The position numbers and the translations under genes are program-made. A stretch of DNA of 64,000 nucleotides from an uncultured Planctomycetia bacterium (lineage in GTDB: Bacteria > Omnitrophota > Gorgyraeia > JABMRG01): NCBI GenBank assembly GCA_964634945.1, contig CAZWMG010000002.1:102661-166660 (forward strand). Direction: 5' to 3'. Below, in pieces: positions 3,101 through 59,079 of the stretch; the first letter of the stretch is position 1; every line of letters starts with the position of its first letter. The notes beneath the pieces were generated by a model, which made no database searches, had not been told where the DNA came from, and was given only the letters and a program-made list of their open reading frames with translations.

Positions 3101-3275
3101 AGGGCTTTTGCCCATGGCAGCGGACAAGAGTGAACAGGCGACTCTTTGGTCCCCATTAGCAATAACAGTTATGGGTGGCCTTATAAGCTCGACGGTACTT
3201 ACCCTATTTGTTGTCCCAAGCACCTATGTCATGTTCCAGGATATAAGAAGGCGATTCCTCCCCAATACCCCCTAA
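174..3275 (+). CDS. RND (HAE1/AcrB-family) inner-membrane efflux transporter, 1033 aa
   Basis: Full-length ORF. The N-terminus reads MGLPNLSVKRPITISMLFLGIIMIGFIAFSRLPIELLPN, typical of AcrB-type pumps. Length ~1030 aa fits the family. It has two hydrophobic TM clusters (around aa 340-480 and 880-1020) separated by large periplasmic loops, and the C-terminal 12-TM architecture. Confidence 0.88.
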   Translation: MGLPNLSVKRPITISMLFLGIIMIGFIAFSRLPIELLPNFSFGDISIFINIRGGMPPEEVEEQVTKPIEEAVGTVSHLRNLISVSEEGRSRIVLRFEPGINMNYALLEVREKFSRIRSKLPKQIEKPVIAKFEQQDRPIVILAVTALGYTPEMLRRIVDENIKDRILRVNGVANVDIGGGRERKILVEVDQRKLQAYNLPIGRVINALNTNNIDLLLGSYDNKRNKHLIRVSGGFKSIENIENVGIAATPSRSIIKVKDVADVKDSYLEAQSYARVNVLPVVSLYIQKESEANTVAVAQGIEKVKEELTSGILDKRIRVIETYNQADSIKQAIDGVKKTLLWGALFAILVLWFFLRDMRSTFIIAASIPISVIATFMCMYFFKITLNIMTLSGLAIGVGMLVDSSVVVLENIHRLKENGLKIKRAVIEGAQEMILAITAGTVTTIVVFLPIIFISKDIRILYMGLALTVAFSLIASLFVALSLVPMLSVYLPAMDWRKLFRHKKPKARSAIEVSAAKRRPLIEKFRKKYRCLLIRSLRSRYLLLIITIALFCGAIYVLQVHVEKEFVGTAQQQDFTIFIELPTGAKLDISDQAVIGIEEVLETVPEIKQFSSRIEKWSSKIYVKLVPLGQRTRSTKEVIEDLRTRVEDVERKFREAFIYFEEAEESETNEIIIDIFGYNYNNLNEIAISMLTRMQAIPGLLDLKIRWRKGRPEWKLKVNRRKASMYGLTVDDIANVVHAQMRGLRATLYHADAKEIEVIGRLQEKDRRTLDQLRKLTLTAPDGTSVFLEQVVDLEPGIGPSKIWRKNKSRMIQISANRGSLAFGTAADKIQDVLKDLKLPKDYYYNLGDNYWRMVRNQKEFLSLWPPGILWIVIVLIYLVLASLFESYSQPFIIMITVPLAVIGVAAALWITKKTINISVLMGGIMLGGIVVNNAIILIDYTNRLIQQGFRGKRAIVTASIRRLRPIMMTTCTTLLGLLPMAADKSEQATLWSPLAITVMGGLISSTVLTLFVVPSTYVMFQDIRRRFLPNTP

Positions 3276-3315
3276 CTTTACATTTTGAGTATTGCACTTT
3301 TTTGTAAAGTTAGGG
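3270..3315 (+). terminator. Perfect 13-bp inverted repeat (CCCTAACTTTACA / TGTAAAGTTAGGG) with a 20-nt conserved loop, overlapping the RND stop codon. Candidate terminator or protein-binding palindrome, and a member of the 34-nt element family.
   Basis: Seen directly: 3270-3282 is the reverse complement of 3303-3315. A T-rich tract follows (attttgcgatattt). The loop/core sequence TTTACATTTTGAGTATTGCACT(T/A)TTTTGTAAAG recurs at 52447..52480 and 52508..52541. Confidence 0.5.
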
Positions 3316-3360
3316 ATTTTGCGATATTTCCCTAAAAAGCATATTTTTTTACATTTTCAC

Positions 3361-3389
3361 TTGACTACATTAGGATAAAATGGTATACT
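3361..3389 (+). promoter_or_regulatory. Candidate sigma70-type promoter for the giant gene: TTGACT - 17 nt - TGgTATACT (extended -10)
   Basis: TTGACT at 3361-3366, a 17-nt spacer, then TATACT at 3384-3389 preceded by TG. A Shine-Dalgarno AAGGGGG at 3506-3512 lies 7 nt before the ATG at 3520. Confidence 0.45.
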
Positions 3390-3519
3390 TCTGCTGTACC
3401 TTAAAAAAGATTTTAAAAAATGTGTAATAAAGTATGAAAAACTTAAATAAAACTTCAACATTTTTAGTCTTTTAATGTGTTATATATAATAGAGATTAGA
3501 TTCACAAGGGGGCAATAGG

Positions 3520-6500
3520 ATGTTTTATACCAATAACAGAGGAAGAATAATATTTAAGTGTATTAGTATTATTATAATCCTCTGTTTTTTTATTCAGGAT
3601 ATCGCGTCAGCGACTAATGGCCTGCCATTATGGTCAGTAATTAATGGAAACCGTGTGCTTGATGCCCGCGCAAAAGATTTCACCAACCTCGCCAAGATAG
3701 AGATCCCAAAAGATTACGGCATAATCAAAGAGATCCATAATACCGGAAGCGATAAGATAATAATCAATATCCAGGACGCGCACGCTAATCTAGGTGCCCA
3801 GGAATCGATTAACAAGCTTATAGAAAGCCTTGATAATGATTACCAGCTCAAGCTTGTGGCATTAGAAGGTGCTAAGGGGAATGTAGATACCTCATTGTTT
3901 CAGTCTCATCCTGATAATAATGCCAGAAAAAAGATAGCAAAATACTTTTTAGACAGAGGCAAGATAAACGCTGCTGAATATTACAAGATAAGCTCAGATT
4001 CAGATATAAAACTTTACGGCGCGGAGAATGGCTCGCTATACAGAGAAAACGTTAAATCTTACATAGACTCGCTAACTAATAAGGGCAGCATACACAAGGC
4101 TATTATTACCTTAAAGAGAGTAGTCTCACAGCTTAAATCTAAGGTATATTCTAAGCAGCTCCTAGAGCTTGATAGAAAGAGGCTAGAATACAGGACAGAC
4201 GCAATATCATTTAAGGAGTATTGGAAATATTTAGGCGCGCAATCAAGCAGGTTGAGGATAGACATATCAGACTTTGAGAATATTCGCGCTCTTCTTGATG
4301 CCTCAGAGCTTGAGGATAGAATAGATTTTAGCGGTGCGGAAAAAGAACGCCAGGCATTGATAGAGGTGCTTACAAACAGCCTTACCGGCGATAATATAGA
4401 GCAACTCTTATCGGAAAGCATGTCTTTTAGGTTGGGTAGAATACAGCCGTCAGTATATCATAACCATTTAAGGGATTACGCCCTGTCATGCGGGATAGAT
4501 ATATCATTGTATCCTAATCTTTCTGGTTATACAGATTATGTCAATATCCACGATAAGGTCGCATTGGACTCACTCTTTATTGAGCTCGATGAGCTTATAG
4601 ATAGCGTGCAATCACAATTAGTCCGTAATGATGATCAGCGCCTGCTTGCCTCGATATCAAAGAGAGCGGATATTTTGATAGAACTTTTAGATGCCAAGAT
4701 TGTAAATAGAGATCTGCAGTATTACAAATCGCATAAACAGGATTTTATACCTCAGAACATAACGCACGAATTATCCCCTTTAATGGCAAGGTATGGCATA
4801 GAGGTTAATCTCGTACCTGAGATGAGGGTAATTTTAGAGGCGCTTCCCTCTGTAGAGAAATTCTATGATTTAGCGACAAAGAGAAACAAGGCGCTTGTTG
4901 ATAATACACTAAGCAAGATGCAAAAGGATAATCGTTCTCTGGCAGTGCTTGTAACAGGTGGTTTCCATACAGAGGGTATCGCTAATATATTGAGAGACAG
5001 AAATATATCATATATGGTGGTATTGCCAAAATTTTCGAAAGATGCGCTTGACAGGCCTTATGATGATATTGTCTTGAATAAGCGCTTGCCATTTGAAGAG
5101 GTGCTCTCAAAAGGTGAATACTATCTCCAGGCACCAAGTATATTCTCAATGTTTGAACCTGTGGCAGAACAGAGAATAGGTCTTTTAACCTTTATACTAC
5201 TTCTTTCGTTAGGTGACATGCAGGCAATAGATAGCGATGCCTTTGTGCAGTTGGGTAAGGATATATTTAAGGTAATTAAAAAAGGCCAGGGCATAACAGT
5301 AGAATCGATATCATCAGAAACTGACCCACTTACAGTTGAAGACAATACCGAAGAGACCGCTCGAAATTTAGTTAAGGTGCTTGAAACATGGAATAAAAAG
5401 CGCAGAAAAGAAGAGTCATCTGGTGAGGTGTTAAATAATACGTTGACACCGAATGATCTCGAGATATTAATCAGGAACATGCTTAAGGATACAGAACTTG
5501 GCAGGTCCGAGTTTGAAGAGACCGAATTAACAGCAGCGGTAAAAGATTATAAGAAGATAGTTTTGGAAGAGTCTGCTATCAAAAGCGCGGATTCCGCTGC
5601 TCAGGAGATACTTGAAAGGCAGTTTCAGAGGGCATTTGAGAATCTGCAAAGCTTAAAAGGTAAACCAGGCTATGATTTAGCAAAGCGTAAATTAGAACAG
5701 GTGCCGGCATATAAACACAGACTCGCTACGGCATTAGAGAATGTAAAGACTGAAGAAGACGTTGCTAATAAGGCCCATCTTGATACCTTGACAAAAACAT
5801 CTTCAAGCGGTTTAGGTAAACCTGTTAAGCATTTATACGGTAGACATGAGCCGGAATGGGAATCGATAGTATCGGGTTTAACATCATATATTATTGCGGT
5901 GAATCTTGTGAGCTTTTCGTTTGACCGAATGAATAAGGCCTACGTTACTTTAGGTGATGATATATTCTTTGTTTCTGTAAACGAAGACACCGAAAGCCTC
6001 GGTGATAAATTTTCAATCAGAACCAGCACAAAAGAGGAGATGGATGCGGATAGCGTAGAAATATTGCGCCCCTTAGCGAATGACTGGGTCAAGGGTTGGT
6101 CTGATATATTATATGATAGAAACAGACGCAGTGTCCAATTTGCGCTTAATGATATAGATACCATGATGCGTCATATTATGAGTTATAAGGGAAGTAACGC
6201 CATGATTATGAATGTTTTGGATGATCCTCGCGTAGAAAAAGAGGTACATAAATATATTGAAGTATTGTCGCCCAAAGTTGAAAGCGCGCTGAATAAGCAA
6301 TTAGAGAATAGGTTAAGCAATATTGAGCTTGATAATAGTTTGCCTGCGCATCAACAGGGTATAGATGAATTATATTATCTATATGGCAATAAGGCACAAG
6401 AGGTTCTTAAGGCCCTATCAACTCCGGATATTGCCAAAGCAAAAACATCCTCTTCTAGTGATATTACATCAATGCGTATATCAAAAGATCAGGAGGAGAT

Positions 6501-12500: not shown

Positions 12501-15500
12501 AATAGCTAAGCGCACAGGTTCTCTAACAGCATTTAAGGAATTACTCGCAAATCTCCACTCAGGGATAATATTAAGAGCTATAGAGGAATCTTTCTCTCAG
12601 GGGCAAAGTTTAGATGAAAAACTAGAGGAGATAAGAAGGCTTATAAATAGCAGGCTGAGACAGCAAGAGCTTGTTGAAGAGATGCGGGATATTATAATAA
12701 GCGAAGAAAATGATAATAATAAGAAAAGAACGGAATATGAAAGAGAAGTTAGTAAATATCAGGCAGCGCTTTTAAGGCTAAAAGAGTCTATTGCGGGCTC
12801 ATCCGATAAACTAAATACTTTTCTTGAAACCATTGGGGCTGATAATTTAATACCTCAAGAACCAGATAAGCGCGCGGCATTACTGGAGGTTATAAATCAA
12901 CGTCTTATAAATGAACTGGCAAAATTCCAGACAGAACAACAGCGCTCAAGAAAACAGCTCGACCGCCTAGCGCATGATGCGCAGCAAGGAGTTGCCGGTG
13001 CATTTACACAATTCGATGCTGTTATCGCAAAGTCTACACAGGTAGCGCGTGATTTTAGTTCTAGGATTAACAGCAAGGACGGAATAAAAACATTTTTAAG
13101 CGTTATTCTTGCAGGGCAGGCAAAAGGTAAGGTTTCTGAGGCTAAGAAGCGTAAAGGCTTAACAATGCCCACAAAAGCATTGCCTGTTCTGGCTTCCATT
13201 CTGGCTGTATTAACAGGGCTTGTCTCGGTTTTATATAGCGTTGGAAGCATCAATACATTATTGTTGCCTTCTATTTTGGGGCTCTCTACTGTATTCCCAT
13301 TACTCTTTCCAATTATGGGCATAATCGCGGCGATGTTTTTGATCGTTAATATATACGTTCAACAAGGCTATGGCAAGAAGATAGGGGTTCTAGTCAAAGA
13401 ATCAGCCAAAGACTTTTTCAAGATTACAACAGGCACAAAGAGCATTGATACAGGTAGCCAGCTTGCTGACGCAAAGGCTTTCTGGGCCTCATTTGGAAAA
13501 TTTGCAGGTACAACATTATTGTTTCTGTTAGCAACCCCTGGACTTTGGTCAGGCGCCGGTATGTTAATAGCAGCGATTATAAACCCAGGTATAGTTATAT
13601 TTGGCTTACCTGTTATACCTTTAGCTTTTATAGTACTATGTTTTTCATTATTAGCAAACCTGACATTCCACCGTGTATTTAACAGCCAACTTGAGCGACA
13701 AAGGCATATAACACCTACCAGATTTCAAGCAGGCCTTAACGCCTTTGTGAGGGCTATTGCATTAGGCATAGGTATTTCATTTGCAATTCAAGTTGGCACA
13801 GGTGCTGTTTTGCTTACGCTTTTACCGATAACCGCTATTGTAATAACAGCCATAGTTTCATCTTTGGCTACAAAAAAACAAACAGGACGGTACTATAAAG
13901 AAAAGCTACCGGAATATATAGGTTGGGTTACAGGAGTTATCGGAATAGGGGTTGTGCTTTTACTTGCTAGCTGGATAGGTGCCGCTGCTGTAGCGGGAGT
14001 TGCAATGCCCGCATTACAGGTCGCATTGGCAGTTGTAGGTTTAGGGACAATATCTCTACAGTCTCTCAGTGCGGGCAAGGCCGCTAGTATCGCTGTTGGC
14101 AAAGTTAGTGATTCCTGGAAAAAGAAACAGGTATGGATAACGAGTTTTATCCAGAACCTCCTGCCCAATAACAGAACCATAATAATGTATTCTATGATGA
14201 TAGTAGCAATCCCTCTATTAGTAGGCGGCGCTGTTAATACGATTTTGGTTGTATTGGCAAGCGGAATAGCTATTTGGCTACTTAATAAATTTAATGTTTC
14301 AATAGGAAAGCGGTTAGGTCCTAAGTGGTCAAAGAGATTAGGTGGCGTATTTGGGCAAGCGATGATGTATTCAGCCGCGACAACACCGATTGTGCAATTT
14401 ACACAAATGGCTAATCAAATGGATGAAAGACAATACCGGCAAACACATATTACGCGGGTATCCGAAGCGATAAAACAAGGCCAAAAGAATTTTCAAGACA
14501 CGCTTGGAGAAATAGAAAATTATAGTCCCGATCAGCTCAAAGGGCTAAAGAACCTTACGAAGAATATAGAGGGGTTTGTAGATGGAATAATTACAGGTAA
14601 ACCTGCTCCAACAGCTGTACCTGATTTAACAAAGGAAAAAAAAGAGAAAAGAGAAAAGGTAGAGACAGCTGAAGTAGGAGAATCAAAAGAGGCACAGCCC
14701 CGCGCACCTGCATTTACTCAAACCCCACAAGTAAGAGAAGAAGCAGAAGCTGTAGCCAAAGCAGAAGAGGAAGCCAAAGCAGTAGCAGTGAAGAAAGCTA
14801 AGCTTCATGTCCACACAGTTAAAAAAGGTGACAGCTTATGGAGATTATCAATAAGGTATGCTAAAGGAGAGAGCAAGCTTTATCAATTGAGGTTATTCGC
14901 AGAGATTCTTAAAGTTAATAAGCAGTTTACTGATCCTCGCATTATACATCCCGGAGACAAAGTAACTATTCCGGTGTTAAGAGCTACAAAAATTGTACAA
15001 AAAACAAAACCACAGGTTTATGTAGTTAAAAAAGGTGACAGCTTATGGAGATTATCAATAAGGTATGCTAAAGGAGAGAGCAAGCTTTATCAATTGAGGT
15101 TATTCGCAGAGATTCTTAAAGTTAATAAGCAGTTTACTGATCCTCGCATTATACATCCCGGAGACAAAGTAACTATTCCGGTATTAACAGGTACAGTAGT
15201 TTTAGTTCCACCCCCACCGCAAGAAAAGGTAAAGGTAGAGTTAAAGGAGAAGGCAGTGGTTGCGGTACCTCTGCAGGATAAGAAAGAAGAGCAACCGGTA
15301 AAAGAAAGAGTGCAAGATACAAGCGTACAAGTTAAGGGTGATAAGGCCGCAGTTGCGGTGTTACCACAGAAACATAAAGAGATTAAGCCAAAAGTAGCTC
15401 AGCCCATAGCTAAAAAGAAGGATACTGCAGCGAAAGCAGCTGTTGGCAAGATTAGTGTTGCGCCTATAGTAGCAAAACCTATTTTACAAGAAACTGTAGA

Positions 15501-27500: not shown

Positions 27501-30500
27501 GCTCATGTCTCAGGACGAGATAAAAGAGTTATTGGGCGCGGATGCTAAGGATATAGATATTGAGCAGCTTATCAAGGATATGGCAAACCTTAGGAGCGCT
27601 GACTGGAACTGGGTCGGAATCGAGGCCTTCGATATTGATAAACATGGTGATATGCTGTTTGTATTTGCGCTTATGGCTCAGCAACAAATAGATATAGATG
27701 GGGCCCTTATTCCTATAGGAACAACAGGCGTGGAAGAGTTATTTGCCTTTATGGGTAACAAAAAGGCAAAAGACGCTATATCTAATCTTACAAACAACGC
27801 GATAGATTTTAGTGCCCCACAGGATATTTACAGTGATAATTTTAAGGCACTTATTACTAATTCCCAGTCATTATATAAAATATATACAATAGAACAATTA
27901 GAACTCGCGACACAGATAAAGCCTTTATCAGAGAGCCTGTTTAATCTGGAGGAAGGCACATTAAGCATAACAAGCCCAGAACACAGAAGGGTCATATTCG
28001 AGAGGGTAGACGATGCTACGGTAGAAGGCTCTGATGTTATAAGCCATCTTAATTCTGTATTAGAGCTTAAGGAAGACTTTGAGAAGAGCTGGGGAGCTTT
28101 AAGTTTTGAAGAAGATAAAGGAACTTCCGGATCAAGGGGGACGCCTAAGCTGAAGTTTCTTGAAGAGATGGCATATATATATGATAAAGCCAAGAAAGAT
28201 AAAGAGGAAGGGCTTTCAAATTCAAGGTTCGCGGATGAAAAGTTTGTAAAGGCTGTAATAGAGTATTCCGGTCAGCTTGATGACGCAGATTTCTCCTGGT
28301 GCAAATCGGGTAATGAGGCCACAGCCCCTGAAGTTTTAAAAGACTGGAAACGCTATTTCGGCACCCTGGCAGTGATATTGGCTTATGAAGGAGAGGTTTT
28401 TAAGTCCTATCCTGAATACGGAGGCGCTTCAAAAGCAGTAGATAATGTCAAAGAACTGCTGTCACATATGTCAAAATTACACGAAAGTATCACAAAGAAT
28501 AAAGATTATAAAAAAGCCCTTCCTGATGATGCTAATTTTGCTGAATTGAATAATGTAGCATGGAAGTTTCTTATATCCGAGGCAGTGTATGAACTTAACT
28601 GGCTGCCTGACGGAGCTGTTATGGGTATAGAGAACAGGGCGAAAGCGCTTAGTGACTCACTTTCAATATTTGATTATGTAGAGAAGATGTATAAAACATT
28701 ACGAGAAGAGGCCCCAAAGATAACTACTCTTGAAGGCAAAGGTATATTAGATCAATTGATTTCAGGTATTGAGCTTACAGATACTACTATGACAGCTGAA
28801 AAGCTGGAGGCGATGAGAGATGTTATAGCATATTACGTAAGCAAGAGGCCTGAATTAGGCGTAGAGGGCGTATTGAACATTACCCAGACTCCTCTTAGTG
28901 TTGATAGCGTTATATTAAACCTAATTGCGGATACCAAGACGCAAGTAAAATCTGTTAATACGACGACTCTGATAGATTCTATGATATATACAAATATTCA
29001 TTTACGTGATGAGATAAAGGCTGATCTAGGGGAAGAGTCTGAGAATGTTGTGGCATACTGGACAGAGGTAGTCAATCGATCATTAAACAATGCAGCGCGT
29101 TCGGAATCTCTCCGGGAGATCGTAGATAAGCTGAAGAAAGATAGTAACTTTTATTATGTATTTAATCAGCCTGCTTATGTAAAACATCCTACAGGTACTC
29201 CTGTATGGGATATGACCGATGGAGCAGCATGGGATTTTCTTTATGGTACAGCTACAAATTACATAGGCCCTGACAAGCCATGGCAGACATCAGAAGAATA
29301 CCTAGCCTCTGTAAAGGATGTAAGAGATATGCTTGATACATATAAGCCTGAGATCGAGAGCTATCTTTCTGATTCTAAGCTTTGGGGCCTTTCAATACCA
29401 AAGAACCTATTGTATTATAAATGGAATGATTCCTCAGCCGAGGGAGCTAATCAGAAGAAGGTAGCGGATATACTTTGGGGCCTTGCTTTATTAATTAATA
29501 GATATTCCATACCGCATACAAACATTGATACCGGAAGCACAGGTACATTGACTATAAAGGACTTGATTAAATTATCGCCTGATCTTCTTGATAACTTAAG
29601 CAACCAAAAAGGTATAGCCAATACTCAGATATTATCTCTTATCCGTGACCTTCATCCAAGAGTTAATGCGAACGATGTATACAGGACAAATGGGAGAAGC
29701 GGCGCTATAATACGCCAGTTATACGCTGATTTTGCTGAGATGATTCGCACTGGTTACTATTATGTGTATACATATGCACAGGATTCATCAGGCAAGGTCA
29801 AACAGGAGCTTGTGCGTGTTAAGTCTGATGAGCCTATTACAAAAGAGCTTATCGAAAGGAACCTGCGAAGGACTAAAGAATTAATAGACGCTGGAGCGCT
29901 CAATTATATTTATACCATGTCACCTGAAACAAATGGCATAAAATATTATGGTAATTCCGAATACAGCCCTATAATAAGGAATTATTTCAATTACATAGTA
30001 ACGCAAGACAATTATAATCAGCAAGAGTTACTGAAGATGCTCCATGCCAAGAGCATGTATCATCAGTCTATAGTAAAGCAGTCCAGCCAATGGAAGGCAA
30101 AGTTCCATGATTTTTATAATATACCCGCTGGAAGCGAGCTTGACCCATTAACGAATAAGGCATATGACGACGCGTTAAGCATCCTTGCGTCAACACTTGT
30201 TATAGGTAGTGTTAAGTATAATCCCGCAACAGGTACATTTGAGCCTACAGGAGCTGTACCTGAATCAGAATGGAATGAGAAGATAAATGACTTTATAGAA
30301 TTACTTCCTATCATGGATGATATCTACGCTAATAATAAGGCTGCTCTAGATAGTATAGCAGCTGCTTATGGCATAACAGAAGAGAGTGATCCGCAGGCAT
30401 ATTATACAATAGCTGCTGATATAGCATACAATTTTAAGACAGGCTACTTACAGTATGACGCAAAGACAGCCACATTCAAAAGAGCATGGCCCGAAGGAAC

Positions 30501-33500
30501 CAAAGGCAACCTTTCTGCTTTTGTGAACAATGTCTTAAATACTGTCAATAAAGAGTATGTAACCAATCTTCAAACGCTTTTTAATAACCCAAGGGTTATA
30601 AGCCTGGCTAAGAATATTTATGGCGCAGATACAGAAGAAGAGGTATCTGCTGTTATTACAACGATACTCAATGATTTTACAGAAGGCTACTTACAGTATA
30701 ACCCGAAGACAGGCCAATTTGATAAATATATATGGCCTGAAGGAACCAAAGGCAACCTTTCTGCTTTTGTGAACAATGTCTTAGGTACTGTCAATAAGGA
30801 GTACTTAAATAATCTGGGCAGTCTGCTTAATAATCAAAGCGTTATAAATTTAGCGAAGAATGTCTATGGAGCAAGCGCAGAGCAGGAGGTATCCGCAGTT
30901 GCTGCCCAGATACTCAATGATCTTGATAAGGGGTATTTGCAGTACAACCCCGCATCAGGAAGATTCGATAAGAGGATATGGCCTGAAGGAACCAAAGGCA
31001 ACCTTTCTGCTTTTGTGAACAATGTCTTAAATACTGTCAATAAAGAGTATGTAACCAATCTTCAAACGCTTTTTAATAACCCAAGGGTTATAAGCCTGGC
31101 TAAGAATATTTATGGCGCAGATACAGAAGAAGAGGTATCTGCTGTTATTACAACGATACTCAATGATTTTACAGAAGGCTACTTACAGTATAACCCGAAG
31201 ACAGGCCAATTTGATAAATATATATGGCCTGAAGGAACCAAAGGCAACCTTTCTGCTTTTGTGAACAATGTCTTAGGTACTGTAACAACAGGGTATCTGC
31301 GCGATCTGAGGACTATCCTTACTCATTCAAGGTTTAATGCTATAGCTAATGCTTACAAAACAAAGACTGATGAGCAGAAATCCGCGGTTGCTACCCAGAT
31401 ACTGAATGATTATAAGAAAGGTTATTTGGAATATAATATTCAACAGAGAAGATTTATATGGAAAAAGTATGATTTTTCTATAACCTTGTTAAATATAATC
31501 AATGAAAGTGCTGATCTGTTAAGCCGGGGCCTGTTGGACAATATGCGCGAATTATATACAACATATTCAGGAAGCGTAGACAGGATAGCGCAGTCTCAGG
31601 GAGTAGTTGACCGTAATTCAACAGAATACAGCTCAATAGTAGCAGACTTAGCTCGCCGGATGATTCTGGAGAAGATTGATCCAGTAGATTTATGGGACAT
31701 GCCCCGTAACATCGAGGACGCGAAATCCTTAAGAGACGCTTTGGCTGCCGACCCTAATCTACTTAGATTTATAACAGGAAAAAATAATATAAATACTCCT
31801 GAAGTTGAGGCCTGGGTTGTCGCGCAGGCAGCCAAGATAGGCCAGGGCATAGACAAGGGTTTTCCTGATTATAACTCGTATCTCATGGTTATGAAGGCAT
31901 GGATGCATATATGGAATGATGTCTGTGAGCAGATTGGACGCAGGCCTAACATAGATTTAACTTCAGGCTTTGGCTATGAGTTAAGAAACGGCCAACTCTA
32001 TTTAAAATATTATAGCGGGGATTATTCCGGTATAAAGATAGGTGTTGATAATCAGGATCTGGCTGATATTACTGTGACATTGGTAAAGGGCAATGAGGCA
32101 TCTGCTGATGAATACGCTACATGGCAGGTAATGCAGCAGGTAATAAACAAGGAAAGAAGGATTTATAAGATAGCTGATGCCGGGCCCGGTTACGAGAATG
32201 TGCAAAGCGCGTATCGCGGCGATATTAAGGTAATAGAAAAAATCTATGCTTATAAGGAGCAGATACCGGGATACCTCTCTAAGGAGCCGCTTTGGACTGA
32301 AACAAATACCTATGATGTCCGCACAGGAGCTCCAATCAGAGTAGAGGCTCACCACTCTATAATAGAATATTCACGTGAGTATCATGATTGGTATGAAGTA
32401 CCGCGCGATGAACGCAATCCAAGTTTTGGTTTTATAAGATCAACCATGCCTATAGGTGGAGTTATCAGAAGCGCAGACGGGAGTTTAAAAGAGAAGTTTA
32501 CAATAAGCGACATAGATAAAGAGAGAGGCACCTTTGTCCTGCAGGTAGATGTGTATGCGCAGCAAGATGGCAAGGATATTGTTATAGCCACAAGAAGTGA
32601 GATATGTGATATCGGCACAGGTGGTGTTTTGGATCAGAAGAATAGCGATGGAACGTATATCAGTTATACCTATAGAGACATACTTTTAAGGATAGCCTCA
32701 AAAGTAGAAGAGTTTGCTGGAACTGATGAGGCCCCGGTATCTGTGCATGAGCTTTATGATTTAGAGGGCCTGCCTGGCGAAGGTATTGCTGCAACAGATA
32801 TAGACCAATGGAGCAATACAAAGACGCATGATCCGCACGGGGCGCTTGTGGCTCAGACGGATATAACTGTTGCCGGCAATACGACTACCTCTGTATATCG
32901 CAATAAAGATACACAGAAAGAGATAGTAAGAGTTGAGCGGGATGAGCAAGGCCATATAATAAAGATAGGCATGTTTAAGGGGCATGTCCGTGATGAGGAA
33001 ACAGGCGACTACTTGGCAAGAGTTGAGACAGTAGATCCTGTTAGGGCAGGATGGGCCAAGTCAGGCCTTGATATGGAGGCTTTTGTAAGGGATATGGCCG
33101 CCTCTAATTCAGGTAAAGAGTTTATAGATCTTGATCCTAAACTTGATAAGTCGTTGATTGAGACAAGGTTATATAATGGCCCTAAATTAGTTGAACTGAT
33201 ATCAGAATCACAGGCAGGTAAGACCATAACCAAGGTCTATTATGATAAAAGAACAGGTAATGAGGCATTTAGAGTAACAAGAAATGCTAATGGCGAGATA
33301 ATAGATATAGGTATTTATAGAGGCTATCAATATGAGGATAAGATAAGCGGCGCAATATTGACATTGGAAGAGGCAAAACAGATTTATGGCAAAGATTATA
33401 TAAAAGAGACTTATAGGCTAGCGAAGGTTGACAGGCTCGATGTGCAAAAAGCCGGGTGGGATGAGATTATGGATACTACTTTCGGCCGCATGCCCGCTTC

Positions 33501-42500: not shown

Positions 42501-45500
42501 AAAATGCCTGGAAGCATTAAATGCAGCGGAACAAAAAGATAAAGTTAGCCTATTCCATTTGAAGCAGCTTGAAAAAGAATCTGATATGCCAAATATTTTG
42601 AAGATAAATCCAGGTACAGAAGAAAATAAGAAGCTTATAATAGATGGCTGGAGAATAAGAAGGCATCTGGTGGAGATGCTTGGTAAGGCAGGCTATGCTC
42701 AGGATACAGGGATTAATCTTGCAGAACAGGCAGAAAGAATAGGCCAGGATAAAAGCCTAAGCGGTAAGGTATTATTCTATTTCATGCAGAATAAGTATAA
42801 TATGGGCACCGGAGGTGAACCGTATAATTTGAAAACCATAGGGCTTGCTGATGGAAATGATTTAGGCCAGAGAGAACTTCTGGCATTGTTGGTGGAATAT
42901 TTCTTAGGTAACGCAAACAAGGATACGGAACTTATAGATCCCCCTAAAGCGGCATATGTATTATATGACTGGACGCCGTTTGGTTTTAAATCCGCTGCTA
43001 TGAACGCTATTGATATGGTTCCCGAGCACTCATCAGATATAGGTTCTATGGTTGTTATGGACAGGGATGCCACGGTCCATGATCTGGATAGTTATATATA
43101 TGATTTAAAACGAATACGCCGTGATGAAGAGATCGCGATAATAGTGCCTGGCAGGGGAACTACCAACACGCTTACTACAATAGGCAAGGCTTCACAGCTT
43201 ATAGAGGAAGGCCATAGATCGTATTTAAGCGGTGTAATGGGGCTTTTAGGCGGAACTCAGGGCGAGTTCGTTGGTACAGGATGGGGCAACATGTTAAGAG
43301 TTACCATGGCAGAGTCTCTCGAAGCGCTAGGTGCTCCGGATTACCCAACACCTTCCATTACCAAGGCGTTACGAAAAAAACATAAAGGATTCTTTGATAG
43401 GTTATTTGCCAATAGTTTTGGCCTTAGAGGGTATGTACCGAATGCGGTTGGTATAAGCGAAGATATTTGGGCTGTTGTTCAGGCCGGTGAAACGCAGATC
43501 GGACTTGGTAGAATTCCGAAGATGCTCGTATCCAAAGCCTTTTGGCACAAGATACGAGAGACCTTTACTCACGCGGAATGGTTTACAGCCTTTCCAAGGT
43601 GGTCAGGCGGCCTTATGCAGATGAACAATGATATTATTATGCAAAGAGCAACATTCTTTGGTCCGTTTAGTGTCTTTGCAAAAGAGGTGAGGCAATTAGG
43701 GGGCGATTTCTTCACTAGTTCACCTTTCGCGCTTCTTAATATATTGATAATGACCGTTGCGGTATGGGGAGGATTCAGCCCGTTTTATGGTATCCTGCTT
43801 GGTTTTTGGCTTGTAGGGTTTGTGTTTACTAATATATTAATGGTTCATGGGCTCATAGCTTATCTTGAAGGAAGCGGCTTTAATACCATAACAGCATTAG
43901 CCTCAGGTCTTATAGTTGGGGCTTTAATGCCATGGAACCTGCCTCTTATCGCAATAGGTTTTGTTCTTGGAGGATTCATCGTAGGCGGTAGTAAGTGGTT
44001 ATTAAGCAGGCCAAGGGATATGATATTATTTCCTTTACAGCTTGTTATACACGCCTTTGCGCAGATTAAAAACGCCTCTTTGATATCTGTTAAGGCCGCA
44101 AGAAAGCTGGAATCTATGGCAAGTAGGGTCAATGATAACGCAGGTGCATGGGTAAAAGATGCTTCAGAAAGAATGTCTCTCAAGTTTGGCTTATCAGGAG
44201 CAGCATTACCTGTTTCTAGCATAATAGATATACCTGCGGTTAAGAGTGATACCAAGAAAAACTTTATAAGCATGCGCAACATAGCATTTTTAGGAGCCGG
44301 GTCTGTTTTGATAAGCATGGTTGCAGTATACGCGCTTAATATCCAAAATGTTGTAATGCTTTTGGCGGGATTGATATTTAGTGTAGGTATTCTTGAAGGG
44401 CCAAATTATACAAATTTAAAAGAAGGTGGTTATTGGATACGGAATGAATATATGCGGAGAATAGTTGTTTTTGCGCTTAATATTATGCCAAAGGTAGCAG
44501 GAGCAACAGTTGCCGTAACAACGCTTGTGTGTTTACATTTCGCCAGAATTATGCTCCTAACCAATCCATTGGCCGCAGCTATACTCTTTTCTTCAGCTAT
44601 CGCTATAGCAGGCATTGTATATGGCGTATGGAGAAGTACAGATCATTATAAGGTAATAGCTCTACATAAAGCTATCTTGAAAAAGGCTAAGGATAATAAG
44701 AGTATTTTAGAAAGTATGCATCTAAAATATGGCTCAAATGTAGAGTTTAATGACATGACTAACCTGGTAAAGAATAATTACAGGGATATGCTATATGATA
44801 TTGTAACAAGCAAAGAGTATAAAGGCCCAGAAGCATTTGTGAACCACTTAAAAGACTTAAAAGACTTAAAAGACTCAAAAGACTCAAAAGACTCAAGAGG
44901 CTCAAAAGACTCAAAAGACTCAAAAGACTTAAAAGCCTCAAAAGAGAAAGACTTAAGAAAAATAATTATAAGTAAAAGCTTGAAAAAATTAGATACAAAT
45001 TTACTGATTAAGAGAGAGATAAGAACCAGGCTTGTTTCAGAGTTTATCCGCTCGTATAGGCTTAATCTACTTTTGTTCGTATGGATATTTCTCCCAAGTT
45101 TACCGGCGAATATTAATTACTTTCTGCATTCAGGAGGAGACCGTATAATAGAAACAGCATCAGAGTTTTTCAAGCCATTTGTCTTGCCTCTGCAGGTAAT
45201 GTTTTATTATATATTAGCAGGGCAGATTGTTGGTTCTGTGCAGCTTGCATATTGGAAAAACAGGACAGTTAAGATTACAAGGGGTATCGACAGGTTACCG
45301 TTAACAGGCAATAGACAAAAAGCAGAGGCATTATTGTCTTTACTTAAGATATATCTGGAGCAGAGGAGTTATGGTTATGTAAAGAAGACATACAATGATA
45401 TTAAGCTTGTTTTGGGTGCAACGCTTGATTCGTCTCCGATAGAGAGTACACAGGACGATTCTCCATCGCAATCGCTATCACAAACAGCTACTGGTTTTGA

Positions 45501-46422: not shown

Positions 46423-46466
46423 GGGTAAGTCCACACACAACTAAAAACGATTTCTTTGCCAGGGTT

Positions 46467-46491: not shown

Positions 46492-46583
46492 AATTACAGG
46501 ATATTTTATGTCCAAATTATTTAAGACTTTATAAACCATGATGCCAAGAGCTGCATTTAGCATTTAACAGTGGGGGATAAGAT

Positions 46584-49500
46584 ATGTTTAATAAAGCAAG
46601 AAAAGCTTTTTCTTATTTAGTATTATTTTCTTTCTTTTTGAATAATACAGCTTATGCGGAAATTGCTAACAATTCTACATTGCGATGTATATCTTCTGCC
46701 AATGCACACATTGGGCAGAAGATAGCAAGCAACTTTTTAAATGCCCCACCTGATATAAAATCTTCAAACATTAAAACCTCCTCATCCGGCATTATAACTC
46801 CTGAAGATATATTCACAAGAAAACTCGCGTTAGCGATAATTAAGCCGGATGTCAGTTCTGATATAAATAAAAACATAGCAGCGAATAAGAGCCTCTTTAG
46901 CAGGGATGATATAATACGAGAGCTTGAAGATAAGGGTTTCGAAGTAATAACTACTTTACCTGCAAACGTTTTAACCAGAAGAGATGCGGAAGAGTTCTAC
47001 TCAGAGCATAAAGATAGGCTATTTTTTAGCGATCTTATTGAATATATGACATCAGATGAAAGTGTACCGGTTATATTGCGAGGCCCGGAAAACGCATGGC
47101 AGAAGTTAAGAAATGTTTTAGGGGTAGTGGATGGTAACGAGCAAAATACTTTAAGAGAAAAACTTGGCGCGCATAGGAAACAGCTTCCCGGCAATGTTAA
47201 TATCATATACAACAGAATACATGGATCTGATTCATTTCAGTCAACACTTAGAGAGATTCTTTTCATTGCGGATAAGATGCAAAGTACGCCTTTTCTTGGA
47301 TCCGGCGAAAAACTGCTCATGTCTTTGTCATTGGAATCAGATAGGGCATATTTCTCAGCACTTTACAGGCAGTATAAGCTTCAGTTGCTTGTATTAAATA
47401 GAGCACGTTTCTTAATCAATGCGGATGCTTCGCTGACAAAAGACGACGCTCTTGTAAGAGCCACAGCTTCGATAACAGCTGAACTGAAAAAAACAGGAAG
47501 AGATAAAGACGCCTTAATATTAGCGGATTCCAAGCCGCTTATTATTGGTCAAAGCTTTTTTCCTTCAGCACTACTTTCAGATAAGGATTTTAGAGATAAG
47601 CTAGGAGCGGTTCAATATGATGATATTGCTAATGACCCTAGAAACATAGAGGCCGCGACAGGTGTAACAATGGTACAAAATCCATTAAATGGCGGCATAG
47701 GCCAGGCAATGGACAGGTTGGGTTTCTTAGAGGCTATTTGGCCGGCAACCGGGCGAATAGGAGTGCCTGTGCTTGGCGCAAAGGCTATGGACTGCTATTT
47801 TAATGTTAAGGTAGTAATAAATGGCCAGGAAAAAGAAGCATTTGTAAGCGTTGCTGAAGCTACTATACTCTCTCTTCTTAACGAAGTAGAGAGAGGCTCA
47901 TATAGGCATGGCATCTTAGAGGAGTTTATAAGTAGTGAAACAAGCCAGGCAATGGAAGATCTTAAAAATACAGTATATCTTTACGATAGGCTCGACCCTT
48001 TTAAAGCCGACAAGAGGACATATGGCAATATACTTAAAGAGAAGAATATGTTAGGAATAATGCCGGAGCAGGCGATGTTTCCGCGTTTTGACGTAGAAGA
48101 TAACTACAGGCTTACTGATAAGTATACAGCTCCTGGAAGCCATGGACATTGGGGCGTTTATGCGCTTTCTAACATACCTGATGAAGAACTTCCACAGGAT
48201 GGGAGTATTCAGATAAGGAGCATATTTAATGGCGATGGCATATCTAATTCACCGAACAATGTTATAGCAGGTTGGATGGCGAGAGAAGGCGCGCCTGTTA
48301 TAATGATAACAACCACAAGAGCTCCGATAGATGTAAAGGGTGGTATGTTGGGCGTGGAATATTTAGATGATGAAAAGGTTAGAAAAAATATGCTTGAATT
48401 AGCAGATGCAAAGACAAACGACAAGGAGCAATCTGGTCAGGCTGAACTCTTCAAAAATATGGGTATCTCTGAAACGGGTAAAAATTTTGGCAAAGAAGGC
48501 ATGCAGCTTTTTAATACTAACACAGTGCTCTTGAATGATACAGTTTTGCAGCCATTTTTAAGAGAGTTACGAGAGACACTTGGCATAGAAGAATATAACA
48601 GGGCGATAAGCCCAAAGATGATGATGAAATCTGTTGTACAGAAAGATGGCAAAGAGTATGCCCAGTTAGAAGGCGCTATGGGTTCTTCAATGCTTAATCT
48701 TGCCGGATTTTTATCTACAAATAATGACCCACAGATAATAGACTTATGTAAAAAACATGGCATAGATCCAAATCTATTTTTACGTTTAGTCAATATAGAC
48801 GTAAATAAGAGGACAGATTTCTTCGCTCCTATAAAATTTCCTATAGATTACTGGTTGCAGTTTTTTAGTGACCATTTTACAGTCGATACAACTACATGGA
48901 AGCTTAAGAACCTAAGGCCCGGCCATCTGCCAGCCCTGGATACGCCGGATCAGGATAAGGATGAATACTACTCGAATGTGCTTAATCTGTTTAACCTTTT
49001 TGGAGATAAGGGTGTATTAAATAAAAATAATCCTGTAATGACAAGTACAATTGGCCTTGATCTGCTAAAGCTACGCGGTAAGGTTAAAATAGCCGGTTCA
49101 ATACTACGGGGAAATGTTGTAGTGATAAATGAGGGCGATGGTGTTGCTGATTTAACTACTGGCGAGATACAAACGAAGTTGCTTGCCGATAACATGGTAA
49201 GCCTGGATAATGGCAAGCTGGTCTTAGAGGATGTTGCTATAGTAATAAGGGAGAATGGTAAGGATATAAAAGCAGCTAAGTTGCAAAATAAGGAAAGCAT
49301 AGATATTGTAGTTTCTGCGTTAGTTTCAGATAAGGCCTCCTCAGCAGGCATGAATCAGGAAACAGATATTCCAGCCATCAAGAGTATTGTTCACCAAGCT
49401 AGAGCCGCTCTGACGCAAGAGCGCAAGAAAGGCATAGAATTCGGAACCAGCGGTTTTAGGGGTATAAATAGTTTAAATGAATTAACCGTAGCTATTACAG

Positions 49501-52415
49501 CGCAGGCAAACGTGGATTATATAAAAGAAGCTGGTGACAGAGATAAGGTATTTGTTATCGGCAGGGATACCAGAGAACAGGGGAATGACTTTATTATGAT
49601 TACCGCGGCAGTATTTGCTGATAATGGCATAAAAGCAGTTATCTCGGACGGATATACACCAACTCCTGTAATTGCACATGCCACTGTTGCTAATGCATAT
49701 GGCGGAGCTATAAATTTTACTGCAAGTCATAATCCCCAAGAGTATAAAGGATACAAGTTTACCCCCTCGCATGGCGGGGCTGTGCTACCGGAAGTAACCG
49801 ATGTAATACAGTCGAAAACGAACGATTACCTAAAGCGATTGGAGTCGGATAGCGGAATTATAGCTGCCTTGAATAGCCCATACCTAAAAGCTGCTTTGAG
49901 TTATAAGGAGATGTTTGAGTCTTTTGTTAATTCCGGTGATATTAAATTCATCGATCCAGTAGAGGCTTATGTAGAGTATCTTTTTGGTCTTGAGATGCAA
50001 GGTGTAAAGATATTTGATAAGGTAACAGATTCCCGGCTTGGTGTTATAGCAAGCGGCTTGCATGGAACAGCAGGCCCTTATTTTGAGCGCATCTTTGGCC
50101 CAAAAGGATTAAATAAGCTGGCAGTAGATGTTTTAAATAGAGCGCCAAGAGAAGACTTCGGCCGTTTTAAGAGCCCCGAGGCAAAAGAAGCAAATCTTAA
50201 GGATGTAGTAGATCTTGTCACTAGGCTTGATAATGTGTTAGGTGTTTCAGGTGACGGTGATGCAGATAGAGAAGGAATTATCGATATAAATAGCAAGTTT
50301 ATAGAACCGAATGAATTAGCTGCTATATTTTATTGGTATCTTCATGAGATAAAGGGTCTAAAAGGCGGCGTTGCAAAGACTGTGGCGACTACGAACCTTC
50401 TTAATGTGTTAGCAGGTACGTTTAATGAAGAATGTTATGAAAAACAGGTAGGTTTCAAGAATTTTATGAATGAGATACTTAGCGGAAAGGCTATTGTGGC
50501 TGCGGAATCGAGCGCTCACATAGGAATAAACGCTGTGTCCTGGGATGACGCTTTTTTATGCGCTCTATTAACATATCAGATACTCTCTGATAAGGACAAT
50601 ATTAAGGAGAAGACAGGCGTTGAATTGAAAGCCCTTACCGATATCTTAGATTATATACAGAATAAGGTTGTTAGCAGTTATTTTAGTTTTTATGAGGGCA
50701 AGATACCGGCTGATGAGGCGACAAAGAGCCTGCTTTTAAGCTGGAATCAAAGCCCCGAGATGCTTAGCAGAAAGCTTGGTGAGGAGCAATTGTTATCTAT
50801 CTTGCAATACAATAATTTAGAGGTAGCTCAGATAAGCACTTTGCCAAAAAAGGGGATAAAGGTTGTTCTTAAGGATAGAAGCTGGCTCTGCCTAAGGCCT
50901 TCAGGCACTGAACCGCTGGTAAGATTATATGCGGAAGGGGCAGATAAGGCTGCGCACGAGGCGTCTAAAAAGAAGGAAATTCTTAAAAAGATAGCTCAAG
51001 CTTTATTGAAGGTTGATAAGGAGAAGCAGTCATTAAAGGCCTCCTCATCCGGCACTCAGAGCGCCCAGGATAGTGTAGAGTTAAGCTCTATCAGCAGACT
51101 TTTTTCTCAATTTGTATCCGAAAAGAATCCAGATACTTTAAGAAGTTTGATAAAAACAGCCAGAGAAGCTATGAGGGATACTTATGCAAATCCAGATAAG
51201 AAAGAGATTCTTCACAATGCAATTCTTTTTGCGGAGATGAGATTACTTAGTGAATTTCCGCCAGAATCAACAAAAGATAAGAAGAAACTCCTTTCTAAAT
51301 ACGCGGAATTGGAAAGGCAGTGGCAGAAAATGTTTGAAAAAATGTCACAAGATGCCTATAAAGTTTCAAAACGATATTTTCCAGATGAGTATAATGTGTT
51401 GCAATATAAGCTCAAGATGTATAAGGATTTTTTAGTTGTGCTTAAGCAAGATATGGAAGAGCTAGAAGATAAATTGCTACAGCAGATCTCAGATGCAAAA
51501 TCCTCCTCAAGTGGTGAGAGCAAACTCTCCGCTGAGAGAGCGGATGCTATTGAGGCAGAGCTTGGACATCTCTTTGATATTACAAGAGAGACTATGATAG
51601 AGGGTCTAGCAAAACCACCTATTGTAAAAATTGATCTAGCGAGAGATGATTTCCTGTCTATTGAATTTGCGCTGCTGCTGGAGAGATATAGGCAGATGGC
51701 TGTAAAAGAGTTTGGGGAAAATATAATAATGGATATCTTGCCTAGTAGAAATGGGAACGAAGGCGTGCGTGTGGGCATATCAGTAAAACCAGATAGCGCA
51801 GCAGTTGAATATAAATCTTCCTCATCTGGTATATTGCTTACTGAAAATGATTTAGGCCTTATTGAACTCGCCGCTGATGTAGCGGACCTAAGTGACGCAA
51901 CAGGTACAATAGTATACGATGATACAGCAATGTCAACAGAACAGCAGGGAATATTACGGAACCTTTTAGGCAAGGGTACACAAGGTTTAGCTGACCTAGA
52001 GGCAAAACTGGGATGTGATGTAAGGCTAATGTCACAAGGCGATGTATCGGATAACGCGAATACAATAATAATCTCAGACGGAGAAATTCCGGGTTTTCTT
52101 AATGCCAAATACTTAATCACAGAGCAGACACAGATAGATACTAGTTATATCGCGGTAACTCCTCTCATAGCGATAGCAAAAGGATTATTGGGGCTAGACA
52201 ACATAACAAGCCAGCCGGAACTATATGAAGCCCTTAAGAGTTCAATAAGAAGCATAAGTCAAGGCCTTCTAAATGCAAGCGATATAGAAGCTGCCATAAC
52301 CGCCTATATAAATGGCAGCCCAATGCTTGTAAAATTACCGCCTGCGTCAGTATATGATTATGATAAGCTTGAGCAGTTGTATCGTCAGGCGCTTATGGTA
52401 TTGATCTCCGCGTAA
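46584..52415 (+). CDS. 1,943-aa fusion protein: nucleoside-diphosphate kinase domain + eukaryotic-type UTP-glucose-1-phosphate uridylyltransferase (UDPGP family) domain + phosphoglucomutase/phosphomannomutase domain + Lys/Glu-rich C-terminal region. It has an N-terminal signal-peptide-like segment.
   Basis: NDK (~46815-47250): KLALAIIKPD...GFEV...FYSEHKDRLFFSDLIEYMTSDESVPVILRGPENAWQKLRNVLG...NRIHGSDS. UGPase (~47450-48950): LNGGIGQAMD (LNGGLGTSMG), APGSHGHWGVY (PPGHGDIY), FNGDGISN, TRAPIDVKGGML (TRADVKGGTL), FNTNTVLL (FNTNNLWI). PGM (49430-50990): GIEFGTSGFRG, TASHNP, GDGDADR, RPSGTEPLVRLYAEG. SD GTGGGGGATAAG before ATG. Signal: MFNKARKAFSYLVLFSFFLNNTAYA. Confidence 0.88.
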   Translation: MFNKARKAFSYLVLFSFFLNNTAYAEIANNSTLRCISSANAHIGQKIASNFLNAPPDIKSSNIKTSSSGIITPEDIFTRKLALAIIKPDVSSDINKNIAANKSLFSRDDIIRELEDKGFEVITTLPANVLTRRDAEEFYSEHKDRLFFSDLIEYMTSDESVPVILRGPENAWQKLRNVLGVVDGNEQNTLREKLGAHRKQLPGNVNIIYNRIHGSDSFQSTLREILFIADKMQSTPFLGSGEKLLMSLSLESDRAYFSALYRQYKLQLLVLNRARFLINADASLTKDDALVRATASITAELKKTGRDKDALILADSKPLIIGQSFFPSALLSDKDFRDKLGAVQYDDIANDPRNIEAATGVTMVQNPLNGGIGQAMDRLGFLEAIWPATGRIGVPVLGAKAMDCYFNVKVVINGQEKEAFVSVAEATILSLLNEVERGSYRHGILEEFISSETSQAMEDLKNTVYLYDRLDPFKADKRTYGNILKEKNMLGIMPEQAMFPRFDVEDNYRLTDKYTAPGSHGHWGVYALSNIPDEELPQDGSIQIRSIFNGDGISNSPNNVIAGWMAREGAPVIMITTTRAPIDVKGGMLGVEYLDDEKVRKNMLELADAKTNDKEQSGQAELFKNMGISETGKNFGKEGMQLFNTNTVLLNDTVLQPFLRELRETLGIEEYNRAISPKMMMKSVVQKDGKEYAQLEGAMGSSMLNLAGFLSTNNDPQIIDLCKKHGIDPNLFLRLVNIDVNKRTDFFAPIKFPIDYWLQFFSDHFTVDTTTWKLKNLRPGHLPALDTPDQDKDEYYSNVLNLFNLFGDKGVLNKNNPVMTSTIGLDLLKLRGKVKIAGSILRGNVVVINEGDGVADLTTGEIQTKLLADNMVSLDNGKLVLEDVAIVIRENGKDIKAAKLQNKESIDIVVSALVSDKASSAGMNQETDIPAIKSIVHQARAALTQERKKGIEFGTSGFRGINSLNELTVAITAQANVDYIKEAGDRDKVFVIGRDTREQGNDFIMITAAVFADNGIKAVISDGYTPTPVIAHATVANAYGGAINFTASHNPQEYKGYKFTPSHGGAVLPEVTDVIQSKTNDYLKRLESDSGIIAALNSPYLKAALSYKEMFESFVNSGDIKFIDPVEAYVEYLFGLEMQGVKIFDKVTDSRLGVIASGLHGTAGPYFERIFGPKGLNKLAVDVLNRAPREDFGRFKSPEAKEANLKDVVDLVTRLDNVLGVSGDGDADREGIIDINSKFIEPNELAAIFYWYLHEIKGLKGGVAKTVATTNLLNVLAGTFNEECYEKQVGFKNFMNEILSGKAIVAAESSAHIGINAVSWDDAFLCALLTYQILSDKDNIKEKTGVELKALTDILDYIQNKVVSSYFSFYEGKIPADEATKSLLLSWNQSPEMLSRKLGEEQLLSILQYNNLEVAQISTLPKKGIKVVLKDRSWLCLRPSGTEPLVRLYAEGADKAAHEASKKKEILKKIAQALLKVDKEKQSLKASSSGTQSAQDSVELSSISRLFSQFVSEKNPDTLRSLIKTAREAMRDTYANPDKKEILHNAILFAEMRLLSEFPPESTKDKKKLLSKYAELERQWQKMFEKMSQDAYKVSKRYFPDEYNVLQYKLKMYKDFLVVLKQDMEELEDKLLQQISDAKSSSSGESKLSAERADAIEAELGHLFDITRETMIEGLAKPPIVKIDLARDDFLSIEFALLLERYRQMAVKEFGENIIMDILPSRNGNEGVRVGISVKPDSAAVEYKSSSSGILLTENDLGLIELAADVADLSDATGTIVYDDTAMSTEQQGILRNLLGKGTQGLADLEAKLGCDVRLMSQGDVSDNANTIIISDGEIPGFLNAKYLITEQTQIDTSYIAVTPLIAIAKGLLGLDNITSQPELYEALKSSIRSISQGLLNASDIEAAITAYINGSPMLVKLPPASVYDYDKLEQLYRQALMVLISA

Positions 52416-52543
52416 TAGCTATTTACAAAGCGATAAGTTTACATTTTGAGTATTGCACTATTTTGTAAAGCTTGATCTCCGCGTAATAGCTATTTACAAA
52501 GCGATAAGTTTACATTTTGAGTATTGCACTATTTTGTAAAGCT
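52401..52543. repeat. 81-nt tandem duplication (52401..52481 and 52482..~52543) that recopies the last codons plus the TAA stop of the fusion gene, together with the 34-nt palindromic element
   Basis: ttgatctccgcgtaatagctatttacaaagcgataagtttacattttgagtattgcactattttgtaaagc occurs twice back-to-back. The second copy diverges into the RBS of the next gene. Confidence 0.85.
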
Positions 52544-52552
52544 AAGGATAAT

Positions 52553-59078: not shown

Positions 59079-59079
59079 A

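Follow-up and report, generated by a model that had tools for sequence, protein, structure and literature searches.

A short palindromic repeat, probably low-copy and dispersed, in intergenic spacers of an Omnitrophota species related to Candidatus Orphnella occulta

Introduction

Short extragenic palindromes are best known as the repetitive extragenic palindromic (REP) and REPIN elements of Enterobacteria and Pseudomonas, which are mobilized by RAYT transposases of the Y1 HUH type. REPs occur in tens to hundreds of copies, and in Escherichia coli they protect or end the upstream transcript at its 3' end. A second group consists of the miniature inverted-repeat transposable elements (MITEs) and other small repeats such as Correia/NEMIS, RUP, ERIC and SMAG; a typical MITE is over 50–100 nt long. 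Small palindromic repeats appear to be undescribed for Omnitrophota in the literature consulted. Here, we analyzed a palindromic element that recurs in a 64,000-nt stretch of an Omnitrophota genome (assembly GCA_964634945.1, contig CAZWMG010000002.1, positions 102,661–166,660), hereafter the window.

The element was judged, with somewhat better than even confidence, to be a low-copy dispersed palindromic repeat of about 43–46 nt, REP/MITE-like in kind, in an Omnitrophota species related to Candidatus Orphnella occulta. Its closest described counterparts are the REP/REPIN elements and very small MITEs. The original prediction had offered a regulator operator, an RNA motif and a small REP/MITE-like element as candidates, and the last of these gave the best fit.

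Results

Copies in the window and anatomy at site 1

A pattern search for the 33-nt core TTTACATTTTGAGTATTGCACT[T/A]TTTTGTAAAG found three occurrences in the window, each on the + strand, where chance would give none. Copy 1 (site 1, behind an RND pump gene) lies at 3277–3309, and copies 2 and 3 (sites 2 and 3, behind a fusion gene) lie at 52438–52470 and 52509–52541. The original prediction of three copies was correct, but its 34-nt length was not. The literal 34-mer contained one T too many and had no match even with three mismatches allowed, and its second copy had been placed at 52447–52480.

At site 1, the core is part of a full palindromic unit, designated type A, at 3270–3315 on the + strand. 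Its left arm, CCCTAACTTTACA (3270–3282), pairs with its right arm, TGTAAAGTTAGGG (3303–3315), in a perfect 13-bp stem around a 20-nt loop, just as had been predicted. The left arm takes in the end of the RND gene, its final codon (Pro) and its TAA stop, and a short U run (AUUUUG, 4 U) follows the stem. The fold was far more stable than those of shuffled sequences, both as RNA (-21.4 kcal/mol, z = -6.1) and as DNA (-11.3 kcal/mol, z = -6.8). Among the copies described below, the full unit is a palindrome of 43–46 nt, and the inverted arms measure a perfect 13 bp at site 1, 11 bp in the metagenome contig L026, 12 bp in the related locus L041 and 6 bp at sites 2 and 3.

A fourth copy at an unrelated locus

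Whole collections were scanned for the exact 18-mer core CATTTTGAGTATTGCACT; the window's own contig was in neither the genome nor the metagenome collection. Among 185,579 species genomes, 11 single matches turned up in unrelated taxa, none with the arms, which is at chance level by our own estimate (~17 expected). There was no match in the viral contigs, and BLAST of the 46-mer against plasmids and phages returned chance-level matches alone (E about 0.7–0.8). The metagenome contigs gave 29 matches, one of them genuine (L026). Another, in L031, extended by a few extra bases, but it fell within a 290-aa open reading frame (ORF) of an organism with 32% GC and was rejected.

The genuine copy (L026:4913–4957) reads CTCTAACTTTACATTTTGAGTATTGCACTTTTTGTAAAGTTAGGC. 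It is 97.7% identical to window 3272–3314 over 43 nt and matches the site-1 unit at 43 of 46 positions, while neither blastn nor tblastx found any other similarity between L026 and the window. An AmmeMemoRadiSam-type radical SAM gene ends 14 nt before it, and the promoter of a 179-aa ORF (TTGACA-16-TAAAAT) begins 33 nt after it; both genes are on the other strand. The placement of the element is independent of its orientation.

The copy at the radical-SAM locus was invariant in the ten contigs listed, which came from different samples and included NCBI assembly GCA_964513125.1. These contigs have the same GC content as the window (40%) and share 74% amino acid identity with Orphnella occulta, a distance equal to that of the window. 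From these two properties, they probably belong to the same species as the window. Orphnella occulta itself has a diverged A-like copy at this locus. Its arms are TTTACA...TGTAAA; one of them is polymorphic (TGT/TGC), 11 nt of arm sequence are duplicated, and the copy does not fold significantly. This suggested that the element at the radical-SAM locus predates the species split. In Orphnella occulta it is decayed, and it appears to evolve roughly neutrally there.

At all three loci, the element follows a stop codon and precedes another gene that runs in the same direction as the first. Identity between paralogous copies in the window species is 87–98%, depending on the pair and the stretch compared, versus 57–70% for orthologous copies.

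Empty slots and a replaced hairpin at site 1

Homologues of the RND protein are named Candidatus Omnitrophica/Omnitrophota, and the cluster at >=90% identity includes Candidatus Orphnella occulta. In the more distant relatives L042 and L044, whose RND proteins share 88 and 87% amino acid identity with that of the window, the RND stop runs directly into the conserved AAAAAGC...TTGACT promoter region. Compared with them, the window has 60 extra nt (3276–3335, + strand), made up of the hairpin and a 20-nt tail and bounded by direct CCCTAA repeats at 3270–3275 and 3330–3335. The site is polymorphic for the insertion.

Other close relatives hold unrelated sequences of 72 nt and roughly 45 nt in the same slot (L055-58 and L060-64). 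From these alignments, we interpreted the spacer behind the RND stop as a hypervariable insertion hotspot, since unrelated inserts occupy it.

L041 and L059, the latter from a metagenome-assembled genome of Orphnella occulta, have a hairpin in the same place, followed by a homologous tail. This hairpin, designated type C, has the form CTTAAGTTGACA-19 nt-TGTCAACTTAAG, and its right arm across the two loci is TG(T/C)CAACTTAAG. The two type C hairpins are identical at 43 of 45 positions. The hairpin of the window matches that of L041 at only 28 of 46 positions (18 of 46 differ). Nevertheless, the RND gene tree joins the window with L041 at 92.1% nucleotide identity and places L059 outside at about 88%; the third-codon-position identities at these two levels are 81 and 72%, respectively. 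The hairpin at site 1 differs from the one expected from the gene tree and matches the L026 copy instead. The parsimonious reading of these sequences is that type A displaced a resident type C on the short branch that leads to the window.

Between types A and C, both partners are changed in three stem pairs, and none of these pairs is broken in L041. All three double changes come from a single A/C split, which reflects replacement and not independent covariation, and compensatory evolution was rejected as proof of an RNA structure. Another non-selective source of such double-change patterns is quasipalindrome template switching, a purely mutational process that makes inverted repeats perfect (PMC7202029). 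The loops of the two types match at 9 to 13 of 20 positions. An inversion of the type C loop was also considered, but the flipped match to type A (13 versus 9 of 20) was too weak.

Insertion and loss of the stem at site 2

The ten Orphnella occulta contigs that cover this junction (L045–L054) have 28 nt between the stop of the fusion gene and the next ATG, without the element. The corresponding spacer in the window is 137 nt long. It is a lineage-specific insertion, duplicated later, in what is elsewhere a tight operon junction.

The original prediction had the stem conserved at every site. At sites 2 and 3 (type B), however, the outer arms are not complementary and the outer stem is lost. Pairing is limited to the 6-bp TTTACA/TGTAAA stem, and the folds were no better than those of shuffled sequences (z = +0.4, 0.1 and -0.3). 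An extra partial left arm, TAGCTATTTACA, is present at 52416–52427 and again at 52487–52498 on the + strand; weak pairing with TGTAAAGCT is possible, and this arm has the look of an internal duplication. Copy 3 lies directly against the next gene's Shine-Dalgarno sequence. Its right 'outer arm' (GCTAAGGATAAT) aligns with the ancestral Shine-Dalgarno region and not with the element, which accounts for the missing long stem at this copy. Both type B copies are degenerate.

The 71-nt tandem duplication

Tandem Repeats Finder reported a 71-nt unit repeated 2.0 times with 100% identity at 52401–52543. The first unit (52401–52471, + strand) consists of the last 12 nt of the fusion coding sequence plus TAA, a 22-nt spacer and core copy 2. 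The second (52472–52542, + strand) is identical to it and ends 10 nt before the ATG at 52553, and the junction between them reads GTAAAGC|TTGATCTCC. A perfect tandem duplication that recopies the last 15 nt of the coding sequence, stop codon included, had been anticipated, though with a unit of 81 nt. Both flanking ORFs are left unchanged by it.

Because the two units are perfectly identical, the duplication appears to be very recent, produced by slippage or unequal exchange beside the hairpin. Small arm duplications recur, an 11-nt one in Orphnella L075–L080 and the extra left arm at window 52416–52427, and the 71-nt duplication fits such recurrent events beside hairpin arms. For the duplication alone, an assembly artefact was also considered. 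It would agree with the complete identity of the units, and no second assembly of the exact locus was retrieved. On the other hand, hairpin-arm duplications were found in independent sequences, and short-read assemblers tend to collapse short tandem repeats and seldom create them. We regard an artefact as improbable.

Genes and promoters around the element

The element had been placed between convergently transcribed genes. In fact, all large ORFs of the window are on the + strand, and the four flanking genes are co-directional. They are the AcrB-type RND pump gene (174–3275; Pfam ACR_tran), a giant ORF of 14,300 aa (3520–46422), the 1,943-aa fusion gene (46584–52415) and a gene for a 599-aa signal-peptide protein (ATG at 52553, 52553–54352; no Pfam family). 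A glycoside hydrolase and ABC sugar-transport cluster with several Pfam matches follows the 599-aa gene. The Pfam scans covered ten window ORFs, leaving out the giant ORF and the last two ORFs. The order RND, giant, fusion and signal-peptide gene is kept in relatives without the repeats, and the 599-aa protein is 71% identical to its orthologue in Orphnella occulta.

Site 1 had also been described as immediately upstream of the next gene, but it lies 210 nt upstream of the ATG of the giant gene. Between them is a strong sigma-70-like promoter, TTGACT-17-TATACT with an upstream TG (3361–3389, + strand), 45 nt 3' of the hairpin. Strong promoters of this type lie 33–45 nt downstream of the intact hairpins, at site 1 and at the radical-SAM locus, and the promoter scan called none at site 2. 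Within the element itself, the promoter and consensus-terminator scans called nothing at either window locus. Two promoter-like arrangements in it (TTTACA-17-TTTTGT and TTGCAC-17-GATAAT) were considered and set aside; the scan did not call them, and the second would set its -10 hexamer against the ATG. Rfam gave no match over the window at gathering thresholds, and none at E <= 1 for 3200–3560 and 52350–52620.

A 10-mer at the left end of the core, TTTACATTTT, is found again at 3347–3356, where it directly precedes the -35 hexamer that serves the giant gene. Relatives carry TTTGCATTTT or another sequence at this position, and the recurrence is probably a chance one in AT-rich DNA.

Giant genes are a known trait of the phylum Omnitrophota (bioRxiv 10.1101/2023.11.21.568195). 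Orthologues of the giant ORF in the relatives are 7,846–10,563 aa long, with Pfam matches to SecA_DEAD, LysM and Glucan_synthase. At the DNA level, the window ORF could be aligned with that of Orphnella over its first 1.6 kb and not beyond. Tandem repeats within it keep the reading frame, with units of 207 nt (14817–15195), 246 nt (30431–31283) and 9 nt (11 times, 44846–44945). The fusion protein joins a nucleoside diphosphate kinase (NDK), a weak UDP-glucose pyrophosphorylase-like (UDPGP-like) region and a full PGM/PMM module, and its Orphnella orthologue has 2,496 aa.

Other small repeats in the window and its relatives

A second small repeat family is built on the octamer ACGCCATA, present 4.4 times at 134–168 (region 87–173), and its reverse complement CGTTATGG, present 8.5 times at 59080–59147 (region 59079–59150). 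Each array forms inverted repeats. The ACGCCATA array is an insertion of 87 nt that separates two RND genes; in L041 and L059 these genes abut or overlap. Related GGTTATNG repeats are found in Orphnella in the same ABC-permease spacer.

Orphnella also has a perfect 28-bp stem with a 22-nt loop (L047:10993–11070) between a GH2-like gene and a 200-aa gene. The 35-nt spacer of the window (62572–62606) lacks this stem, which makes it another lineage-specific palindromic insertion. Several inverted repeats based on TGATACGGTT/AACCGTATCA lie between ROK-family and outer-membrane efflux genes (L042:2354–2631 and L044:2518–2706). One of these, with a 15-bp stem and a 21-nt loop, is common to both loci, and they look like operator sites of an efflux operon.

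Discussion

Of the loci compared here, one was newly occupied and one overwritten. The orientation of the element was free, its neighbours were unrelated, and its loop was kept within a genome alone. This suggested a dispersed repeat that is copied around. The sequences themselves show the repeat with its anatomy, the insertion polymorphism, the replacement at site 1, the independence of orientation and the lost stem at site 2, whereas how the copies are made, and any role in RNA, we infer. The element lodges in the spacer behind stop codons of co-directional genes, in either orientation, and its nearly identical copies within the genome are best read as having been copied recently from one another, by transposition-like copy-paste or ectopic gene conversion. 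The copy at the radical-SAM locus predates the split of the species. The copy at site 2 is a lineage-specific insertion into an operon spacer that has 28 nt in Orphnella, and at site 1 type A took the place of an older, related type C hairpin in the window lineage.

The original prediction had taken the conserved loop as a sign of function beyond that of a terminator. The loops of orthologous copies in sister lineages differ, and we attribute loop identity within the genome to recent copying and not to a functional reading of the loop. Site 1 and the radical-SAM locus have kept the long stem, and there the element stands after the stop of one gene and before the sigma-70-like promoter of the next. 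The transcript of the upstream gene would end in a stable stem-loop at these loci. Like the REPs of E. coli, such a stem-loop may act as a 3'-end protector or a weak terminator-insulator, or it may be simply tolerated.

Like the REP/REPIN elements, the repeat is a short (33–46 nt) imperfect palindrome that is strictly extragenic and lies 3' of stop codons between co-directional genes. It is lineage-specific, with another variant in the sister lineages, its copies are more alike within the genome than between orthologous positions, and a 3' stem-loop role on the upstream mRNA is plausible. Its 20-nt loop, however, is unusually long. With MITEs it shares 13-bp terminal inverted repeats, insertion in either orientation, presence or absence at orthologous sites (absent at site 1 in L042 and L044, and at site 2 in Orphnella L045–L054) and, possibly, short flanking direct repeats. 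It differs from them in being much shorter and in having no known parent insertion sequence.

Several observations weigh against a dispersed REP/MITE-like repeat. The hallmarks of REPs are absent. No GTAG (GTRG) motif occurs in or beside any copy, the flanks being CCCTAAC, CGATAAG, CTCTAAC and CCTTAAG; there are no inverted doublets; and three loci are known instead of hundreds of copies. Membership in the REP-RAYT system is not established. No transposase or RAYT-like gene was found in the DNA examined (the ten window ORFs by Pfam and the ORFs of L026). A search by nhmmer and regular expression through about 585 kb of partly redundant related Omnitrophota loci yielded no more members. The documented total is three loci and four copies, and 'repeat family' is a generous term if the genome holds these copies alone. 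The direct repeats around the hairpin and its variable tail (CCCTAA at site 1, GATAA at site 2 and TCTAA in L026) all end in TAA and may point to a duplicated target or to targeting. However, these repeats are short and differ in length, one at site 1 is part of the stem, and site 1 alone offers an empty slot for comparison; the pattern is statistically insecure and could be due to chance. Finally, the type C hairpins of L041 and L059 are 96% identical, versus 72% at third codon positions of the RND gene. This hints at a real constraint on the site-1 hairpin, which maybe is not merely selfish DNA.

The same conservation would be expected if the hairpin were a functional 3'-end structure (a terminator, insulator or mRNA stabilizer) kept by selection, with the likeness of the copies due to occasional ectopic gene conversion and not mobility. 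At two loci, an intact hairpin follows a stop codon and precedes a strong sigma-70-like promoter, as a Rho-independent terminator would, the stem is perfect in both types A and C in spite of the three pairs that differ on both sides, and the site-1 stem is followed by the short U run. However, this U run is not conserved. The L026 stem has none behind it whichever way it is read, and that of L041 has a weak one. The AT-rich stem and the loop of 19–20 nt are not those of an intrinsic terminator, which combines a GC-rich stem and a loop of 3–8 nt with a U tract behind them; the consensus scan detected none, and it is the sequence of the element, not its structure alone, that unrelated loci have in common. 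In addition, site 2 is a new insertion in an operon spacer without the stem, the Orphnella copy at the radical-SAM locus has decayed, L042 and L044 have no site-1 hairpin at all, and the double changes are better explained by replacement or template switching (PMC7202029). We consider a selected 3'-end hairpin unlikely. A still lower probability, well down among the doubtful, is given to a regulatory site, either an operator for a sequence-specific DNA-binding protein or an RNA motif, that would co-regulate the RND pump, the giant gene and the fusion gene, as originally proposed. In its favour, the TTTACA/TGTAAA half-sites are palindromic, the 33-nt identity extends through the loop, and copies lie upstream of genes, copy 3 even against a Shine-Dalgarno sequence. 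Yet the fourth copy is at an unrelated locus in reversed orientation, relatives have the same gene order without the element, and the orthologous copy of the closest relative differs in both half-sites and loop. The distance to a promoter is inconsistent as well, 33–45 nt upstream of the -35 hexamer at site 1 and the radical-SAM locus and no promoter at site 2, and Rfam has no matching motif. A TyrR box (TGTAAA-N6-TTTACA) was also considered, and neither its half-site order nor its spacing fits.

Integron recombination provides the most improbable explanation, and we give it hardly any weight. The copies would be attC-like sites, or att direct repeats bounding a 49-kb island with the giant and fusion genes. 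The element is indeed a hairpin directly after an ORF, the ends of type A (CCCTAAC...GTTAGGG, with GTTAGGC in L026) resemble the R''/R' boxes RYYYAAC and GTTRRRY, and copies 1 and 2 are direct repeats flanking 3520–52415. But types B and C are without the AAC/GTT triplets and have CTAAGG and CTTAAG, and the 46-nt unit is shorter than an attC site (about 55 nt or more) and perfectly paired, with no bulged bases or central bubble. Pfam found no integrase domain in the ten window ORFs that it covered, a set without the giant ORF and the final two, the genes are not cassette-like and form no cassette array, and the order from the RND gene to the signal-peptide gene is conserved in relatives that lack the repeats. 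Each of the attC, island-att, intrinsic-terminator and Rfam readings failed in at least one of the defining features tested.

A bolder version of the dispersed-repeat reading is that the hairpin is an active, non-autonomous, single-strand mobile element, with an IS200/IS605- or RAYT-like enzyme mobilizing it in trans. Its right arm TTAGG would pair with the target CCTAA and so direct it to NTAA at stop codons, and it could overwrite resident hairpins of the sister subtype, an event of which site 1 seems to be a case. We consider this a long shot. A single-strand mobile element of such a kind is not yet described in Omnitrophota.

The main value of the dispersed-repeat reading is a correction. 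The conservation of the loop is no evidence of a regulatory code that links the efflux pump to the 14,300-aa giant gene and to the sugar-nucleotide fusion gene. Site 1 provides a clean example of an orthologous position at which one hairpin variant replaced another. Should many copies and a cognate transposase be present in the full genome, the repeat could be used to tell strains apart and to study, on a small scale, how repeats turn over in an uncultured phylum.

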